A stretch of 64,000 nucleotides of DNA from an uncultured virus (IMG/VR IMGVR_UViG_3300017992_000735) (Duplodnaviria; Heunggongvirae; Uroviricota; Caudoviricetes), in IMG/VR virus record IMGVR_UViG_3300017992_000735; one strand, given 5' to 3'. The position numbers and the translations under genes were made by a program. This document shows positions 1-64,000 of this stretch, piece by piece; positions within the stretch are counted from its first letter, which is position 1, and each line of letters starts with the position of its first letter. Below the pieces are notes generated by a model that did not search any database, had not been told where the DNA came from, and saw nothing but the letters and a program-made list of their open reading frames with translations.

Positions 1-683
1 CTGGTCTCCATATTACATCGAGGACAATAGAGCTTAACGAACGACTTGGTAGTGGATAAGTTTACATTCACTGCATTGAACTCCTTTCTCACGAGCAGTG
101 TGTTCTGTTTTTCTTCTGCAACTGGGGCAGTAGATTTTCATTCCCAACACTCCCTACCTTGTAGTGTAGCAGGAACAAACACGTTGTGCTTCCTGCACCA
201 TAACTTAACTCTATCCTGGTTGGTGACTTTCCATTCGGAGTGCCTACAGTCATCACAGAGTTTTTTCTGTTCTCTTTTGTTTTGGTGGGCAGTTAGTTCT
301 ACCACAGCCATGTTCTTTAATCCATTCTAAATCCTTCTTGTCACGGACTCGGATTAGGCCCCGGCAATGAGGGCAGTTCATTGTTTTTTCTTCTGGCATC
401 CACAGCCTTCTTTTTCGATCTCCTCGGCTCGTTTAGTGGTCATTGCCAGAACCGGTTGCCCACATCTGGGACAAGCGACCAATTCGGGATTTCCTTCAAC
501 TATTGTACTCATCTTAATCATTCTCACAAAGAAGATCCAGCATTTCTTGCTGCTCCTCTATAGTGGCCATTAGTTCTGCGATAGTGCGCGCAGTGTCCAA
601 CAAATAGAGTTCGATTATAAGTGACCGCTGCTCCTTTTCTTTTGGATCTAACTTGTCAATTAGTTGAGCTAAATCTGACTTCA

Positions 684-10624: not shown

Positions 10625-12159
10625 GTGGTGATTTCTACGTTAGCTATACCAGCAGTAACATCCAATGTCCCAGTAATATCGGTCCAGGTAGTTCCTTGGT
10701 TGGGGGAGTGTTGGATTAACTGCGCTCCCGCATCGGTTCGAGCAATGACAATCTCATTGGGATCTTCATCCAAAACAGCGATAGCCGAGAGGTCATAAGG
10801 AAGTGCAGCATCTAAAGTTGACCAGCTTGCTACATCGTCCGTTTCAACCAAGTCGTCGTTTCCATCCAAAGCTAGGTATACATGGTTATCATCGTTTGGG
10901 TCTATGGCAATAGGCTGGGCTCGGCTGGTTCCCCAAGAACCGGGGTCAATTCCGGTTGTAGTAGCTCCACCATCTGTAGACAACTCTGTTTGTTCGTTAT
11001 TTCCAAAATACCCAGAGATAACTACCCGCTCACCGGTATACTCTGTTGCTTTGACATTGATCGAGTCCCCTGCTCCTGGGTCAAAGGCTTTGGTCCCCAC
11101 ATGGTCATCTACAAGTGGGAGGTCTGCTGTGACCATAATAGGGTTGTTTGAGGAGTCATAAATCCCTAGGTACAAAATGTCTCCATCCCCGTCTACATCC
11201 ATAGATTGTGGTGGAAGATCTGAGCCAGCACCGATTGGGGACAGGGTGTAAGTGGGGCCGTTTCGGAAAATATTGTCGCCACCACCCATATACCAAGTAA
11301 CAGAGTCCCACTTTATTCCCCCACAGCCTGCAGATTCACTAAGAGCAGATACAGCAGTTGACCAACTCCCTCCAGATCGGGTGTAAAGCTGCGCAGTGGA
11401 TCCTTTGTCAACTCCAATCCAAAGGTTCCCGTCTGACCCTCCTGACAACTCCGCAGCTCCCGTTGTCAGCACCCCAGGTGGGTCTAGGTCTTCGGTCCAG
11501 CTTCCTACATACCTCCAGATCTCATCTTGAGTATAGCTAACTGCGTAGAGGGCTCCGCTGTGTGTGTAGAAAGCTGAGTATCCCAGGCTAGAAACTGTTG
11601 GTTCATCTTGCCAAGCCCCCGCTCCCACAACTCGTTTTATGAGAGTTCCTTCGCCACCAATAACTGTTGACCAATATGTATAAGTTCCAAATTTGATAAT
11701 ATCATACGAAGATATACTATTCGACCCACCTACAGTGTATGAGGTATGGACATCGTGAGACCAACTTCCCCCCAACGTTCTTCTGGAGAAGTGAGCTTCT
11801 TGGATTAAGTGTCCAATCAGTTTTCCACACACAATATATAAATAGCTTCCGTACGCATTGGCGCTGCGTATTGTGTACGCAGCATCTACAGTTGAAACAT
11901 CTAGATCCTTAGTCCAGCTCGTTCCGTTTGTGGTGTAGTACAGATCGTTGATGGATGCCCCCCAGATTCGGCCGTTCCAAATGAAAACGCGTTCTAGGTC
12001 AGAAGCTCCTGCGGGATTCCTTTTTGTCCAAGTAGCATCACCCGTCCGCTCATACAGCCCACGGTCACCATCGGAAGTGCCTCCCTGACACCAGAGTTTA
12101 CCACCGTAGATGAAAAATTGTTTTGCTCTATGTGGCCCAGAATCATTAGCCCACGCCAT
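10621..12159 (-). CDS. Beta-propeller virion protein
   Basis: Asp-box-like repeats (TTNGTSW, STDGGATT, SPNQGTTW). Confidence 0.6.
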   Translation of the reverse strand: MAWANDSGPHRAKQFFIYGGKLWCQGGTSDGDRGLYERTGDATWTKRNPAGASDLERVFIWNGRIWGASINDLYYTTNGTSWTKDLDVSTVDAAYTIRSANAYGSYLYIVCGKLIGHLIQEAHFSRRTLGGSWSHDVHTSYTVGGSNSISSYDIIKFGTYTYWSTVIGGEGTLIKRVVGAGAWQDEPTVSSLGYSAFYTHSGALYAVSYTQDEIWRYVGSWTEDLDPPGVLTTGAAELSGGSDGNLWIGVDKGSTAQLYTRSGGSWSTAVSALSESAGCGGIKWDSVTWYMGGGDNIFRNGPTYTLSPIGAGSDLPPQSMDVDGDGDILYLGIYDSSNNPIMVTADLPLVDDHVGTKAFDPGAGDSINVKATEYTGERVVISGYFGNNEQTELSTDGGATTTGIDPGSWGTSRAQPIAIDPNDDNHVYLALDGNDDLVETDDVASWSTLDAALPYDLSAIAVLDEDPNEIVIARTDAGAQLIQHSPNQGTTWTDITGTLDVTAGIANVEITT

Positions 12160-53593: not shown

Positions 53594-53671
53594 GTCAGAA
53601 TGTCGGAACGGTAGACGAGCACGAGAGTGTGCCTGAATACGGGCGTGCAGGTTCGAATCCTGCTTCTGGCG
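53594..53671 (+). ncRNA. tRNA-like element (type II, Leu-like D arm) with the anticodon arm reduced to a GAGA tetraloop
   Basis: Acceptor GTCAGAA/TTCTGGC; D arm TCG-GAACGGTAGA-CGA; GCAC-GAGA-GTGT; variable arm GCCTG-AATA-CGGGC; T arm GCAGG-TTCGAAT-CCTGC. Confidence 0.8.
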
Positions 53672-58041: not shown

Positions 58042-59639
58042 CTAGGTGAATGAAGTGCCCCCGACGATGCTGCAGCCGGTGCCAAGGTGACCTGCAAAGC
58101 TTGCCGTGTAGGCGGCTTGCGCACACATATGCTTTCTAAATATCTTTGTTATCATAAAGGTGTTTAACCCTCTATTTCTTACTGTTACCAGTAAGCTCGG
58201 ACTATGTCTTCGCTCATTTCTGAACGCCCCGCGCTCGTGGGAGAATTATTGCCATACCTCTCGGTTCAGGCGCACTCCTAGTCTCTACACCCACCAAAAA
58301 GTTTCCCTTCTGGCTTGGCTCGGCGTTGTCCCAGTGGGAGTTTCGCCGAATTCACGGAGTTAAGTGACAAAGCGTTTATCACTAGTGCAGTCACCGCGTA
58401 GATTTCAAAGGCAAAAGCTGTACAGCCTCTTGGCAGATCTACATAACTTAATGGTGTTTGTGTACTCTTATACACAATAGGTTCTCCATTATGATAAACT
58501 CTTAATGGATACACCGTCGAGCTAAATATATCTGCCCCCGTCGTCGTGGCAGTGAACCGGAAGTCCGGAACCAGGATCAACTCTCCTACGAACGTCTGGA
58601 TTCTCGGAGCTAGCGTGAAGCCAGCCACGATGCCTCCGCGGTCCTGGTTGATCTGGATCATTTGGACGGGCTGTGTCCCTCCGGTGGCGCCCAAGCTCAG
58701 GTAGCCGATAGCGATGGCTCGGAGAGCTTTGGGGTGACCGAAGATGTGGGTGGGTCTTGCACACCCAGCAGCGAGGAAGTTGTCGAACTCTTCCTCGTCA
58801 TAGGTCCCGGTCGGGTTGCTGTTGGTCCGCGCACCGTTTGCAGATGTGACTTGGGTCTCGATCCCGTCGAAAGCGTTCGCAACTGTAGCGATTGCTCCCT
58901 TGACCAGGGCGAGGTCCCACTTGTTCAGCACAGTCACTTCCTGGAGTTTCATCATCTTCTCTTTGACTCCGATCACTGTTTCGATTCCAGAGTCTAGAGA
59001 AAGTCGGCTGATCCCCAATCCCTGCGCGCGTGCGACTGCTATCGAGTGACGTAAGTCCTCGTAGGTGATAGACTCATAACTGCCGATGTACTTGCGGGCA
59101 ATTGTAGTCGTCTCACCCTCATGCGTGGTCTCGTCCGGACAAGCTCCTTTAGTGAAGAAGCCATGGGACGCCTCCCCCGTGGTGTCGAAGCTCAGGCTGG
59201 TCATCTCTCGCCAGCTATCTGAGTTGTAATCGGTCACCACTTCAGGCAACGTCTTCCAGACTGTGATCTCCTCACACATGTCCAAAACCTCAGTCGGATC
59301 TAGAGGCTGAGGATACTGGTTAGAGAAGTCTGCGGGCTGCGTATAGGGCTGAGGCAGGATATTTGGGTCGGTTTGGGTCTTCTCAACCATTCCCTTGATG
59401 ACTTCCACAGCGGGATCGCCTTCCGGCTCCGGCTGGTTCAGGTTCTCATAAACAGACTGAGCAACCTGCTGCATCTCGGTCATGGTCAAGTCCTCGCCGC
59501 CCTTAGCCTCTCGCACCTGTAACACGGCCCTAGCAACAATGTCCTCGATGTTCGGACCTTCGGCAGGTTCACGACGACCTGCGATGTCGGCGGCACTCTT
59601 GGTCACGATATCGGTAATCGTAGGAACCAAGAGTTCCAC
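58042..59639 (-). CDS. Major capsid protein, spliced: exon 1 59639-58378, exon 2 58135-58042 (451 aa)
   Basis: Follows the protease gene; AFDGIETQV and PTHIFGHP capsid-like motifs; splicing restores ...TALVIKHMCAQAAYTASFAGHLGTGCSIVGGTSFT. Confidence 0.85.
58136..58377 (-). mobile_element. Group I intron (242 nt, no internal ORF)
   Basis: P GAATTCGGCGAAAC, Q ACGCCGAGCCAAG, R GTGTAGAGACTA, S AAGACATAGTCC; P1 AGTGAT/GTCACT with U.G pair; P10 GCTTT/AAAGC; terminal G. Confidence 0.92.
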
Positions 59640-59676: not shown

Positions 59677-61818
59677 CTAGTATATTACACCAGGTGGTGT
59701 GGTCATCCGTGCGATCTCTTTGGCAGAGTAGCTTTCCTTCGGTTCTGGAGCAGGACCACTCGAGCGGTACATAGATTTCCTGATTGGCGCCGCCTCAGCT
59801 ACCGGTTTGCTGATTTGGTTTCTCAGATCCTCCAGTTCCGCCTTCAAGGTTGCATTCTCTTGCACTAGCGGCCTTGTGCCCTCATTTACTGCAGCTACAA
59901 TAACCTCCCGGATGTCGCCCATTGAAGGTGGGGTCTCTTGGATGACTGATTGCTGCATCCAATTCCCCAAATCTCCGAGCGCTTCCTGACAGGCTTGTAA
60001 CTTGCCCCTCCGGTCTAGCTCCTCGCTCCCGAGCACACTTTTGACCTTTATATTGAAAACATCTAGAGGTGTGGTGGCAGGTGGCTCTACTCCTTCAGCC
60101 TTAACACGTTCCTCAGGCTCGGCTTCCGAACCGCCGACTTCTGCCATAGATGTAATCTCCGATTTAATTGCTTCTGCGATCTGATTTAACGCGTCTTGTG
60201 CCACTGACAAATCACCTTCAGTAACTGCGTTGTAGACGCCTTCTGCGAACCTTGTCATGTTATCATCAAAATCTGCTGCCATAACTTCTCCTCCAGTGGC
60301 TGGAGTTTCTTCTAAAATCGAAATAGCTGGGTTCTCAGGAAGTGGTTGCATTTCCGTGCTTGTACCGACAACTGCTTCTGGGGTGTACTGAGCGTCTTTG
60401 TACCAAGTTTCCATATCCTCGTTCAGTGAAGTAACCATCCCGCCCAGCTCACTCAGACGCCGTTGCATATCCTCGAAAGCCTTTAGACGAGCGTCTGAAA
60501 CCTTGCGGCCTGCTTTCTCAACTGCCTCAGATTGTTCCTCAGCCTCCTCAACCACAGCTTCATCCAAACTAGGCGCCCCGTCCTCAGCTTCGGACTTTTT
60601 GCCTCGGAATTTCCCAGCCTTAATGGCTTGGACCACTCCCTCTTGTTTGTGTGCAGCTGCTCGGGCGGCCTTTTTATCTTTATATTTTTTGCCCTTACCA
60701 TAAGGAAACCTACCTAGGACTTTGTCCCCCTTACTTGAATAAAGGACAACCTCCCCATCCTCTTCCTTTATCATCAGCTCGATGAGTTCAGCTTTTTCAA
60801 CTCCACTCATCTTAGCACCGCACTCAGGGCAGGTGACACTCGTACAAGGAGTTCCTGCTTCGTGAGGAGCTGTGGCTCCGCACTCTGGGCAAACGCATTC
60901 AGCAGGTCCACCGTCGCCTTGCTTTGGACCACCTACTCCTTGTCCCTCTCCCCGGGCCTTTTCCACTTCGGACTTCTGTTTCTTTCGTTTCTTAAGCTCT
61001 TCCTCATTCTCTTTCTTAGCTTCTTGATCTAGTCCGGGAACCTCGGCTTCCTCCGGAGTCTCTGTCCACATTTCCTCGGCCATTGTCTCCTTGCCAGGTT
61101 CCTCCTTTTCGTACTCAAAGTCTTTATCCACCTTCTTGCGCTTTGCCTTCTCAACATCCTCACCCTTAAAGACTAGCCCCTCCTCTCCTGCCTCAGACTT
61201 GCCGACTTGACTGGAATATTGCTCTAACTTCTCAGCCCACTCATCGCCAACGATCGAAGCAGCGTCTTCTTTCTTTGTAACCATACTTTTCTCCTTCCAG
61301 GCCTCGATCTCTGTCCGCGGTAGAACAGGAACTCGAGTTAATGCAAAATGTTTGATAATCCCATCTCTATAAACACGCCGAGAGCCTTTCTCGGTAGCCT
61401 CTGACTTTTCCTCTTCCTTGGTTCTATCATAGAAGCCCATCGAAATACGGACTCTCTCATCATGCGGAACATCGTTTTTAATATCCTCCTGAACTGCGGT
61501 AAAGGCCGCCTTACCCAGTTCAGTCGGCCAGAAAGTACCTTTTGCTTTGAACTTCTCGCCATCCGGGTAAATCACAGTGGAAGGCCCAGCTATCCAATCT
61601 TCGTCAGGAATTCCCTTACCGGCGAAGTCATAATGCGAAACACAAGCATACGGCATCATATCCATTTCTTCGGCATGAGCAACAGCATTGTCGAAAAAAG
61701 CTCGGTCCACTCGCTCTTTGTGGTTGTCTTCTCCTGTATCTGAAACAGTAGCAGCCCAGTGCATGGTGCCGTCGTCGTGCAAAGAAGCTTTGGTAAAGTA
61801 GAGACTAATATCTGGCAT
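59677..61818 (-). CDS. Prohead protease / scaffold fusion
   Basis: N-terminal protease-like domain (SDTGEDNHKER, SHY, ISMGF, HFALTRVP), acidic scaffold region, internal Zn ribbon; directly upstream of the capsid gene. Confidence 0.75.
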   Translation of the reverse strand: MPDISLYFTKASLHDDGTMHWAATVSDTGEDNHKERVDRAFFDNAVAHAEEMDMMPYACVSHYDFAGKGIPDEDWIAGPSTVIYPDGEKFKAKGTFWPTELGKAAFTAVQEDIKNDVPHDERVRISMGFYDRTKEEEKSEATEKGSRRVYRDGIIKHFALTRVPVLPRTEIEAWKEKSMVTKKEDAASIVGDEWAEKLEQYSSQVGKSEAGEEGLVFKGEDVEKAKRKKVDKDFEYEKEEPGKETMAEEMWTETPEEAEVPGLDQEAKKENEEELKKRKKQKSEVEKARGEGQGVGGPKQGDGGPAECVCPECGATAPHEAGTPCTSVTCPECGAKMSGVEKAELIELMIKEEDGEVVLYSSKGDKVLGRFPYGKGKKYKDKKAARAAAHKQEGVVQAIKAGKFRGKKSEAEDGAPSLDEAVVEEAEEQSEAVEKAGRKVSDARLKAFEDMQRRLSELGGMVTSLNEDMETWYKDAQYTPEAVVGTSTEMQPLPENPAISILEETPATGGEVMAADFDDNMTRFAEGVYNAVTEGDLSVAQDALNQIAEAIKSEITSMAEVGGSEAEPEERVKAEGVEPPATTPLDVFNIKVKSVLGSEELDRRGKLQACQEALGDLGNWMQQSVIQETPPSMGDIREVIVAAVNEGTRPLVQENATLKAELEDLRNQISKPVAEAAPIRKSMYRSSGPAPEPKESYSAKEIARMTTPPGVIY

Positions 61819-61959: not shown

Positions 61960-61990
61960 ATTGTAACATAGAAGAGGGAGAAATCAAAAT
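61960..61990 (-). promoter_or_regulatory. Class II (putative late) promoter
   Basis: ATTTTGATT, 16 nt, TACAAT with extended -10 TG. Confidence 0.65.
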
Positions 61991-62241
61991 CACACCTTAT
62001 ACCCCCACCTGCCAGGATTCTGCAAAAACTCCTCAGCGTTCTCCAGAGAGCCCCCCTCCAACCACAACATATTATCCCCTAGCCCCTCCTCAGACTCCAA
62101 AACCTCAGAAGTAACCTCGCGGGATGTATTGATAATCTCAGTTACATCCTCCTCAAAAGGACCAGTTACCACAACCTGATCTGGGGCGATATCCACAGTT
62201 GCAGCATATTCACCATCTAGTCTATATACCTTCACTTCCAC
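61990..62241 (-). CDS. Small acidic hypothetical protein
   Basis: GGAGGA RBS; overlaps the end of the peptidase ORF. Confidence 0.6.
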   Translation of the reverse strand: MEVKVYRLDGEYAATVDIAPDQVVVTGPFEEDVTEIINTSREVTSEVLESEEGLGDNMLWLEGGSLENAEEFLQNPGRWGYKV

Positions 62242-63623
62242 TCCTCCGGCATTCTATCACCAAGGACAGCTCCCACCATCTCATGTGATTCCGGAAAATA
62301 ATGCTTATAGAAACCCACTTCCCTTTTATTCGAGTACCTTTTCACACATTCTATACTCTCTGCAAAGAATTCCCGCTCTGTTTTCTTTGCATAGTTCGTA
62401 GGAAACCGATCAAAAAGCCAGGCTCGGTCGTACGGATTATCTTTTGCCCGAATCACCTTGGATGACTTAGCCACTCCCTTCGTTTCACTCAGTGTGTAAT
62501 CCAGCGCATGTCCCCACTCATGCCAAACTGTGCCATAACTGGCAAACCCCTGAGGTGTGTCTAGGTTAGCAGATGTTTGCGGCCCAAAAACAATTTCATC
62601 TGTGTACACCCTGTAAAATCCAGCGCAACCCCTAGCCGAACCTCCATATACGCGATCGAATTCTTCTTGGGTTTTTGTTGTGATAAAAGTAACCTCAGTA
62701 TCGGGTTGAGGCATCCCTTGCAGACTGTATGCTATCTCAGTAGCTTGGTTCTTTGTAACACGCGAACCCACACGGTGCCCACCAGTAGCCTCCTCAAACT
62801 TACTCCTATAGTTGTCATCAGTCCAATCAACAGTACTAACCTTTCCCACAACAGCGGGCGCCTTACTGGGAGCACTTCCCCCTCTCCTGCCCTTGCGCCC
62901 TTTGTGACCCCAATGACCACTTCCAGGCCCGCCTTTCTCAACCTCTGACTTGCCTACGTAGAATTCAATCTCTTTTCCTAACCCTGCGATCTCCGACGGA
63001 GTCGCTGCCAAGTGGCACCTTCAGACGTTCGGGTGAGCTGGCGGCCCACCACACTTTTCTCCAAAAACGTTATCAAAGGTCTTCGAGTTAACCGGCTGGG
63101 GACCCATCGCCTCATTAGCCTTACAGACCTCACATGCGTCCGCTCCAATGGTCACCCATCGCTTTGTTTCAAGGCCGACTTCGTCCATCTGCTTTTCCCA
63201 AGCAGAAGACTGGGCACGAGCAATTTCAAACCGAGTGATCGAGCGGATCCTTTGCTCACTAAACTCGCTCTGCTCGAATAAATTTTTAAAAATTCCGTCT
63301 ATCAGGTCTTGTTCGGGGATCCCTTCTTGGAGACCGTTGTAGATCATAGTGCGGAGGTAGTGTTTGGTTCCTCTGTTGACGTTTCGAACCATCTCTGCTG
63401 CTCTGTCTTGAATAAATTCCAGAGCAACAGGATCTACCAGGTCAAAAGCCAACTCAATTGCTACCCCAGCCAGCTCTCCGATGTACTCTGCTGCCCCTTC
63501 TAGCCCGTCTAAGTAAGCCAGAGTTAACGCTGCAATGAGTTCGTCAGAAACGTCTATTGACCAAAACTCTTCTGAGTCGTCTAGGATCTCATCTATTCGG
63601 TCCCACAGTTCTTCGTCAGCCAC
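62232..63623 (-). CDS. MuF (SPP1 gp7-like) head morphogenesis protein, fused by UGA readthrough (63021-63023) to a zinc metallopeptidase domain (463 aa if read through)
   Basis: RIRSITRFEIARA; KRW..ACEVC; PPAHPNV*RC; in-frame continuation with HEWGH and NYAKKTEREFFAE. Confidence 0.75.
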
Positions 63624-63635
63624 TCAAAAAGTCTC

Positions 63636-64000
63636 CTACTCTCGCGGCACCGTTGTACTTGTATCAGATACATATACCTTGCCCCTGTTCAATATAATCG
63701 TCTCAGGCAACCCTTGCCCATCTAAACCTTGAATAGCATCATAACCCAACAACGCCGGGAGCCGAGCCATATCGTGTCGCGCAAACTCCGCTACATCATT
63801 TGAAATCCGAGAATATTCTGTTATATCCCTTACCAAATCCTTGTTTGTTGGGTCCTTAGCAAGACGAACAGATAACTTATTAAGTTCGGTATCTCTCAAC
63901 TTGCTAAACTGGTCGTGTAATCTATGAACTTCTGCCTCTGTAACAACTTTAGCCCCTTTACTAAGAGCCATCCTAGTGACAACTCCGCCCTCGCTTTTCG
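63636..64000 (-). CDS. C-terminal part of a head-module protein (frame open to the window edge); possibly ADP-ribosyltransferase-like
   Basis: LGYDAI...IILNR ending recalled from phage head-associated enzyme domains; no upstream stop in frame. Confidence 0.4.
   Translation of the reverse strand, partial: KSEGGVVTRMALSKGAKVVTEAEVHRLHDQFSKLRDTELNKLSVRLAKDPTNKDLVRDITEYSRISNDVAEFARHDMARLPALLGYDAIQGLDGQGLPETIILNRGKVYVSDTSTTVPRE

Follow-up and report, generated by a model that had tools for sequence, protein, structure and literature searches.

The stretch of DNA analysed here (the window, 64,000 nucleotides in length) belongs to the uncultured Caudoviricetes virus IMGVR_UViG_3300017992_000735 and lies in a 77,326-base IMG/VR record. 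A longer twin record, of 108,853 bases, carries direct repeats at its termini and has a completeness rating of 100%, and a further twin is a Joint Genome Institute (JGI) contig of 108,832 bases. On the minus strand of the window, the gene of a MuF head-morphogenesis protein is split by an in-frame TGA. Beyond the TGA, the same frame runs through the end of the MuF domain and a linker into a zinc-peptidase-like domain, which is called the cargo in this study. The MuF domain, the linker and the polymorphic cargo thus share one frame and are joined only if the UGA is read. The features of this locus are as follows.

63024..63623, minus strand: the N-terminal 200 codons of the MuF head-morphogenesis domain, with a GTG start at 63621-63623, a CxxC motif at residues 164-167 and the C-terminal residues PPAHPNV.
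63021..63023, minus strand: the in-frame TGA, a candidate selenocysteine codon at the first Cys of a C-x-C knuckle, as placed by the sequence and a column alignment.
62952..63020, minus strand: the last 23 codons of the MuF domain, RCHLAATPSEIAGLGKEIEFYVG, with the second Cys at 63015-63017, aligned with the end of the homologue P0172.
62986..63005, minus strand: a hairpin of 8 base pairs with one bulged A and the loop GUC, a candidate bacterial selenocysteine insertion sequence (bSECIS) according to folding and the bSECIS consensus.
63009..63020, minus strand: a rival start, TTG at 63009-63011 with AGGTG at 63016-63020, according to its duplex with the anti-Shine-Dalgarno (anti-SD) sequence.
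62868..62951, minus strand: a Gly/His/Lys-rich linker, KSEVEKGGPGSGHWGHKGRKGRRGGSAP, of the same kind as in P0003-P0015.
62232..62867, minus strand: the cargo, an HExxH zinc-peptidase-like domain by profile search, with HEWGH at 62508-62522 and its own stop TGA at 62232-62234.
61990..62241, minus strand: an open reading frame (ORF) of 83 residues from the ORF list, whose GTG start overlaps the cargo stop.

The ORF 63021..63623 (-) encodes 200 residues with the end ...GEKCGGPPAHPNV (GGPPAHPNV), followed by TGA at 63021-63023. The frame then continues with AGG TGC CAC (R-C-H, 63012-63020) and TTG at 63009-63011 into the ORF 62232..63011, whose 259 residues comprise, in this order, 20 residues that complete the MuF domain, the linker and the HEWGH domain. 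The assignment to MuF is based on homology. The MuF part matches the PHROG families phrog_2468 (head morphogenesis, 7.9e-13) and phrog_2662 (4.1e-13). The E-values of the head-morphogenesis and minor-head families span 4e-13 to 2e-4, and the alignments extend beyond the stop upon read-through. With the 200-residue MuF part as a query, 740 homologues at E<=1e-3 are found among 1.84 billion representative proteins. The window's own MuF protein has no Pfam-A match at E<=0.01, and PF04233 is recorded for P0173, a 70%-identical relative. The C-terminal motif CxxC...PPxHPx(x)CxC is present as CEVC at residues 164-167 and PPAHPNV-[TGA]-R-C, in which the TGA takes the place of the first Cys.

The identical TGA is found in the window, in G001, L015 and L013, and in contigs of the sequencing runs X1, X3, X6 and X7, which belong to four studies. 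In the twin records, the sequence around the TGA is identical too. Over the full 1.5 kb, the contigs of X1 (sediment, 2018) and X3 (seawater, 2021) agree with the window at every base, and this DNA may originate from these two runs. The 2025 marsh runs X6 and X7, from other studies, contribute short unitigs that span the TGA and the hairpin with no change reported there, and in X7 at least two further variants of the linker diverge directly downstream of the hairpin. The runs with the same sequence are dated from 2018 to 2025. An assembly or sequencing error is rejected because the TGA is identical in several assemblies and in the contigs of four runs. Between the JGI contig L013 and the window, 92 of the 763 compared bases (12%) are different, and the TGA is the same. 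Conservation of the UGA in two or more different sequences is given as a selenoprotein criterion in the accessible part of an earlier paper (PMC1088965), and such conservation is seen here between the window and L013 and in the X6 and X7 unitigs.

TGA ends 29 of the 67 open frames of at least 150 codons in the 77-kb record and is the commonest stop of its long frames. The cargo's own TGA coincides with the ends of the cargo homologues P0004-6, which terminate at the same ...MPEEWK as the window cargo. Global recoding of TGA is rejected on these grounds. Only one TGA in the record, that at 63021-63023, has at least 100 open codons on both sides.

The column occupied by the TGA is a Cys column. 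The best 150 of the 740 homologues were used for its analysis, and a regular expression placed the column in 125 of these 150. Its residue is Cys in 110 of the 125, Asp in 8, Gly in 3 and Glu in 1, and the protein ends there in the remaining 3. When the 25 unplaced homologues are inspected by eye, most of them have Cys, and P0078 is a fourth protein that ends at the column. The motif of the window clade is PPxHPx[TV]-C-[HR]-C, examples being PPGHPGVCRCHLEFDE in P0022 and PPGHPGVCRCHLEFDEQEL, and the viral contigs L005-L007 read GPPAHPNV-TGC-CAC-TGT. The TGA therefore corresponds to the first Cys of C-x-C, one residue later than in the classical PPxHPxCRC. The R-C-H between the TGA and the TTG is retained as in P0172, which has Cys at the column, and in P0003, which has Glu. 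An in-frame UGA is thus aligned with a Cys of the homologues and flanked by conserved residues, as is expected of a selenoprotein. A tblastn search of GenBank phages with the MuF part at 1e-8 gives no match. P0078 has no match in the species genomes, and its two Methanoculleus virus matches are unsplit genes. Four homologues (P0035, P0065, P0103 and P0162) carry a long insertion directly after PPxHPN that ends in ...VVKN just before CRC. Judged from their sequences, these insertions look like inteins placed exactly before the first Cys, at the same column as the TGA.

Among the closest relatives of the window protein, termination at this column is the rule. A word-indexed search with the 200-residue part finds 12 proteins at E<=1e-10, which together with the window and P0003 form 14 subclade clusters. 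In ten of the 14, which span 59-96% identity, the protein stops at precisely this column, and the other four are divided equally between Cys and Glu. The clusters that end there are the window, P0166 (96%), P0167 (82%), P0168 (80%), P0169 (80%), P0170 (77%), P0171 (70%), P0016 (61%), P0174 (60%) and P0176 (59%), and the residue before the end varies among them (V, L, F, I, H or Y). The Cys-type clusters P0172 and P0173 read ...HPNYCRCHLDAIPGEVDKLG..FFTG and then end, and P0003 and P0175 are the Glu-type clusters. Because ten proteins end at one and the same column, contig ends do not explain the pattern, and the position of the stop on a conserved column is far beyond chance. In a maximum-likelihood tree, the subclade has a support of 91/96 and a seven-row clade consisting of stop-type members alone has 97/99. 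All eight outgroup rows have Cys, and the base of the subclade is poorly separated.

A preliminary description of this DNA, made from its letters alone, had reported that PPAHPNV-TGA is followed in frame by R-C-H and the ORF 62232..63011, and the sequence bears this out. It had placed the UGA at the first Cys of the knuckle, which agrees with the homologue motif and with L005-L007, and its proposed alignment for a Cys/TGA pairing gives the Cys column just described. The TGA for which it wanted independent sequence recurs in several assemblies and four runs, and its statement that UGA is a normal stop elsewhere in the genome holds for the long frames of the record. A private nonsense mutation, which it had named as a finding that would speak against its proposal, is ruled out by the conservation of the stop in diverged relatives.

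The stop appears to lie inside the MuF fold. The 23 codons after the TGA align with ...CRCHLDAIPGEVDKLGDELSFFTG, the natural end of the Cys-type protein P0172. P0172 was modelled with AlphaFold on the basis of 38 aligned natural MuF proteins, and the model has a mean predicted local distance difference test (pLDDT) score of 88. The blocks after residue 190 reach pLDDT values of 91-95 and contain a strand (residues 204-207) and a helix (residues 209-213). A Foldseek search of this model against the PDB gives no match at E<=0.001. The model places the stop within the domain rather than at its border and predicts that the 200-residue product would lack the strand, the helix and both knuckle cysteines. 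MuF ends 24 residues after the column in the lineage whose cargo is probably encoded separately (P0172 and P0005).

The frame beyond the TGA is under coding constraint. Between the window and L013, 50 synonymous and 8 non-synonymous codon changes are found before the TGA, and 20 synonymous and 4 non-synonymous changes in the 52 codons after it. Because synonymous changes prevail there by 20 to 4, much as they do before the TGA, the downstream frame is translated and under purifying selection, and the changes in the linker are nearly all synonymous. The TGA and the hairpin lie inside an identical run of 50 nucleotides (63032..62983), which is the second longest of the window-L013 comparison, the longest being 64 nucleotides elsewhere. 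Given that 82 of 253 codons differ between the two sequences, the chance that 12 pre-specified codons remain unchanged is about 0.01. The identical block would equally protect a Shine-Dalgarno (SD) sequence and a start codon.

The part of the frame that depends on the UGA is exchangeable. In the PDB, a profile made of the window protein and P0004-6 finds the catalytic region of anthrax lethal factor chains (E 1.2e-6 to 2.5e-5), and the Pfam family ATLF (PF07737) is found in three of the four profile members, not in the window's own protein. By sequence similarity, the window cargo is a distant relative of the lethal-factor peptidase core. The metallopeptidase that the preliminary description had seen downstream is accordingly supported as a zinc-peptidase-like cargo, by the lethal-factor profile match and the HEWGH motif. 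After the same TGA, L013 carries an ADP-ribosyltransferase instead (PF03496, 6e-16). A third type of cargo is probably PI3/PI4-kinase-like: P0007 is a stand-alone protein consisting of the linker and such a domain, and it is listed with a longest contig of 3,606 bases, as is the stop-type cluster P0169, so that the two are probably neighbours. Similarly, a longest contig of 26,002 bases is given for both the Cys-type P0172 and the stand-alone cargo protein P0005, which are probably neighbours, with MuF and cargo as separate genes.

The linker is common to P0003-P0015, where it is placed ahead of different domains. The linker motif GGPGSGH(W/F/H)GH.GR.G..GGS also recurs up to two or three times per protein between unrelated phage domains (P0008, P0010 and P0011; ADP-ribosyltransferases and others), and it may be a processing or flexible joining site. 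In L013, a different ORF of 114 residues (239-583, minus strand) lies between the cargo and the next shared gene. Because the 83-residue ORF 61990..62241 is absent from L013 and replaced by other DNA, the cargo and the ORF that follows it appear to be exchanged together. No immunity gene is found, and the ORF directly after the window cargo, this 83-residue ORF, has no Pfam or PHROG match. The gene upstream of MuF (63636-63998, minus strand) is unrelated in L013, and the gene after the cargo cassette (start MPDISLYFTKASL) is common to both. From this comparison, the MuF-cargo unit is placed between mosaic breakpoints.

TGA at the same Cys also occurs elsewhere in IMG/VR. The pattern PP[AG]HPx-TGA-x-Cys gives 91 matches there, among which filtering with a MuF profile built from 125 representatives leaves 9 MuF loci in about 6 lineages. 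Five of these lineages have at least 285 open codons upstream of the TGA and 7 to 74 codons after it. The locus L129, with no more than 49 open codons upstream, may be degraded, and the locus L167 reads TGA AGG TGC, as does the window. The mirror pattern, with TGA at the second Cys, gives no MuF locus among 116 matches in IMG/VR. Nonsense mutations that are merely tolerated should strike both cysteines alike, whereas 9 loci are observed at the first and none at the second. The pattern of the window clade, PP[AG]HPxx-TGA-x-C, gives 99 matches in IMG/VR, and the window's twin is the only MuF among them.

The hairpin that follows the TGA is GCGACUCC-GUC-GGAG(A)UCGC (62986-63005), and its loop starts 23 nucleotides after the UGA; both the sequence and its folding agree with what the preliminary description had drawn. 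The bSECIS consensus, as given in the accessible part of a 2026 review of the prokaryotic selenoproteome, asks for a loop of 3-9 nucleotides, a stem of at least 4 base pairs, a G at loop position 1 or 2, usually with a G or U after it, a distance of 16-37 nucleotides from the UGA and a minimum free energy of at most -7.5 kcal/mol (PMC13188914). The window hairpin passes with its loop GUC, its 4+4 base-pair stem and its spacing of 23 nucleotides, and the local fold has an energy of -15.5 kcal/mol, a small neighbouring helix included. As controls, 104 non-redundant MuF loci with Cys at the column were taken from at least 119 scan matches, 116 of which were confirmed as MuF. The consensus is passed by 6 of the 7 TGA lineages, the window included, versus 28 of the 104 Cys loci (one-sided Fisher p 0.003), and the lineage that fails, L164, does so on energy. 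With the criteria of GU at loop positions 1-2 and a G at nucleotides 20-28 from the U of UGA, which were chosen after the data were seen, the counts are 7 of 7 versus 14 of 104. The overall folding energy is alike in the two sets (-13.9 kcal/mol for TGA and -13.2 kcal/mol for Cys). The hairpin is consistent with a SECIS and is enriched as a class in TGA lineages; alone it proves little.

Selenocysteine (Sec) is the best single explanation of these observations, because a real and conserved TGA lies on a Cys column, the frame downstream is under coding constraint, a consensus hairpin follows, TGA is not recoded globally and the cargo is zinc-peptidase-like. The balance of the sequence comparisons tips toward the UGA at 63021-63023 being a selenocysteine codon that gives a MuF-linker-peptidase protein beside a truncated MuF. 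Some ribosomes, helped by host SelB on the hairpin 62986-63005, would insert Sec at the position of the first knuckle Cys and read on through the last 23 MuF residues, the linker and the peptidase to produce one MuF-cargo protein of 463 residues. Other ribosomes would stop and leave a MuF of 200 residues without the end of its fold. It follows from decoding as Sec that the efficiency of this step would set the ratio of truncated MuF to MuF-cargo; selenium supply and the Sec capacity of the host would hence set the number of cargo-bearing copies. The MuF domain would carry the cargo into the head, as has been proposed for MuF polymorphic toxins. We infer three steps of this scheme: ribosomes translate the codon, Sec is the residue that they insert, and the product is packaged. 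A broader proposal is put forward only tentatively: the protein could be a phage virion selenoprotein whose Sec codon lies within the head-incorporation domain, acts as a selenium-dependent gate before interchangeable enzymes and has been kept across a deep MuF subclade.

Several observations weigh against decoding of this UGA as Sec. At the column, P0003 has Glu (PPAHPNV-E-RCHL), and this MuF-linker-HExxH fusion, with 61% identity, is the nearest of the continuous homologues. Because P0003 and P0175 have Glu and 8 of the best 150 representatives have Asp, Cys chemistry cannot be essential at this site. At the DNA level, TGA is seen only in window-like sequences, and nine of the ten stop-type clusters are known by the protein end alone. 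The fusion of MuF with its cargo is probably not obligatory either, because the cargo is probably a separate gene in one related lineage. As for the hairpin, 27% of the Cys controls pass the bSECIS consensus too, which makes the test weak. Counted from the U of UGA, the loop G of the window is nucleotide 27, whereas it comes earlier in the other lineages (22, 22, 22, 25, 23 and 22), and the hairpin region is of ordinary stability (z 0.18 and -0.80). An Rfam search of 62700-63300 at E<=10 gives no match. The hairpin is identical in every DNA copy compared, so that it has no covariation. The complete 108.8-kb phage genome contains no selA, selB or selD and no tRNA-Sec over the cut-off (the best score is 22 bits versus 47), so that the machinery would be that of a host. 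The SECIS search and the selenocysteine inference of the preliminary description are therefore upheld in part: the published consensus, the alignment with Cys, the conservation of the TGA and the downstream selection support them, whereas covariation, an Rfam match and a Cys in the closest continuous homologue are not found.

Regarding the host, 185,579 species genomes contain no match to the subclade pattern GEKx[G/E]GPPAHP, and no RNA run is present among the sequencing runs that hold the stretch. A suppressor tRNA encoded by the phage is rejected, since ARAGORN finds no tRNA in the window and the one tRNA-like element lacks UCA. This element (53594-53671, plus strand) scores 31.9 bits with the Rfam tRNA model in E-value mode and 22 bits, below the cut-off, with the tRNA-Sec model. 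It has acceptor, D, T and extra arms, with a 4-base-pair stem and a 4-nucleotide loop in the place of the anticodon arm, and is not called by ARAGORN.

A true conserved stop is the first alternative. MuF would then be a protein of 200 residues, and the cargo would be made separately from the TTG at 63011 by termination-reinitiation. The cargo protein would bear the last strand and helix of MuF at its N-terminus, and these might dock non-covalently on the truncated MuF. The TTG lies 9 nucleotides after the stop, and AGGTG lies 4 nucleotides before it with an anti-SD duplex of -6.2 kcal/mol. This is about the median for starts of this phage: among the 64 long ORFs of the window, 41% have a first start at least as strong, and so do 17% of random positions. 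Such a usable SD sequence and TTG after the stop also speak against Sec. Gene callers call the 259-residue protein on 7 contigs, and stand-alone proteins composed of linker and cargo exist (P0004-6, P0007, P0012 and P0013), as do the probably separate genes of P0172 and P0005. The 50-nucleotide block that embraces the TGA and the hairpin embraces this putative start as well. However, AGG-TGC is simply the codon pair for a conserved Arg-Cys and recurs after the TGA of L167, and R-C-H would be retained in a spacer that is not translated. On the probable P0169 contig, the downstream protein is called 13 codons further on, which suggests that there is no conserved start. According to the model, the split would also cut a confidently folded element with the loss of both knuckle cysteines, and the probable natural split form ends 24 residues later. 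Restart leaves unexplained why the stop lies on the Cys column in ten clusters and in about 5 to 6 unrelated lineages of short, cargo-less MuF, and why TGA is absent from the second Cys. Restart at the TTG, which the preliminary description had listed among the findings that would speak against its proposal, is unlikely.

Ordinary leaky read-through, in which a normal tRNA (Trp or Cys) misreads the UGA and produces a small set fraction of MuF-cargo with no role for selenium, is rather improbable. It is equal to Sec in explaining the conserved stop, the downstream constraint and a small number of cargo copies in each head, and no special host is needed. However, it offers no reason why the stop should lie on the Cys column in many lineages, why the first Cys is affected and the second is not (9 versus 0 loci), or why loops starting with G/U are enriched at a fixed distance. 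Moreover, a leaky stop located 7-14 codons from the end brings no benefit to a short MuF gene that has no cargo. Decay of a dispensable MuF-cargo fusion by nonsense mutation of the Cys codon is highly improbable: a single base change turns TGC into TGA, Asp, Glu and Gly are tolerated at the column by some relatives and L129 looks degraded, but the stop persists down to 59% protein identity, the frames are intact across at least three cargo types (the PI3/PI4-kinase-like one resting on the probable P0169-P0007 link), synonymous changes prevail downstream and the same sequence is present in runs of 2018 to 2025.

The prototype of a bacterial SECIS located within an ORF and read by SelB is that of Escherichia coli fdhF. 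In common with bacterial selenoprotein genes, the MuF locus has an in-frame UGA aligned with Cys, coding sequence after it and a family in which Sec, Cys and other states would interchange, as well as a small hairpin with an apical loop starting with G/U within 16-37 nucleotides of the UGA. Unlike those genes, it encodes a phage virion-assembly protein and not a redox enzyme, its site looks like a metal-binding knuckle, the Sec machinery would be borrowed from the host and the codon would gate a swappable cargo. The words phage, virus and viral do not occur in the accessible text of the 2026 review (PMC13188914).

MuF polymorphic toxins of temperate phages consist of an N-terminal MuF domain followed by a variable enzyme. 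In the accessible part of their description, metallopeptidase domains account for 20% of 191 putative MuF toxins and ADP-ribosyltransferase domains are also frequent, and the expressions 'stop codon' and 'cysteine' do not occur there (Jamet et al. 2017, PMC5576092). The cargo types found here, namely a peptidase, an ADP-ribosyltransferase and probably a PI3/PI4-kinase-like domain, follow the same plan. In contrast to those toxins, a conserved UGA stands between the MuF core and the rest, and the genome is of 109 kb with terminal repeats.

Read-through in phage Q-beta is cited as the first example of its kind in the accessible text of a 2021 review of viral recoding, which names as viral selenoproteins only the glutathione peroxidases of the poxviruses molluscum contagiosum and fowlpox (PMC8310308). 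The A1 protein of Q-beta resembles the product predicted here in that a UGA at the end of a structural gene is read through by a minority of ribosomes to give a minor virion protein with a C-terminal extension. However, Q-beta is an RNA phage in which the UGA at the natural end of a complete coat domain is plainly misread, whereas the UGA of the window lies inside a domain, on a Cys column and ahead of a SECIS-type hairpin. The poxvirus glutathione peroxidases likewise rely on the Sec machinery of the host, and the SECIS of fowlpox lies in the coding region. They are captured cellular redox enzymes of eukaryotic viruses, whereas a bacterial-type signal in a phage structural gene is proposed here. 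A full-text literature search, which was not exhaustive, finds no natural bacteriophage selenoprotein and no paper on TGA at the MuF Cys. What would be new in this locus is bacterial-type Sec recoding in a phage virion gene, as a gate before a polymorphic cargo.

If Sec is indeed inserted, MuF would, together with the other TGA-at-Cys lineages of IMG/VR, be the first selenoprotein family of bacteriophages. The Sec-decoding capacity of the host would decide how many heads carry cargo, the amount of injected enzyme loaded into virions would be adjusted by a trace element, and the host range of the phage could be tied to the patchy distribution of the bacterial Sec trait. Phage metagenomes would then contain MuF genes that gene callers have systematically shortened and MuF-cargo fusions that they have cut in two. 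The site is also a compact natural cassette of UGA plus hairpin. If the conserved split is right instead, it would still be an unusual way to attach a cargo, inside a folded domain.

When the surroundings are examined for head and packaging genes, the four ORFs that neighbour the MuF-cargo unit (63636..63971, 61990..62241, 59677..61818 and 58278..59639) have no Pfam or PHROG match. The ORF 58278..59639, which encodes 453 residues, is overlapped at its 3' end by a group I intron (Rfam RF00028, 58178-58506, minus strand, 63.8 bits, E 7e-14). This ORF is probably interrupted, with its true end beyond the intron. Outside the window, about 2.3 kb upstream of MuF and on the same strand, a lone TAG near position 11576 (+) of G000:C1 has 510 and 466 open in-frame codons on either side. 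It could reflect two adjacent genes that share one frame by chance, or another interrupted gene.

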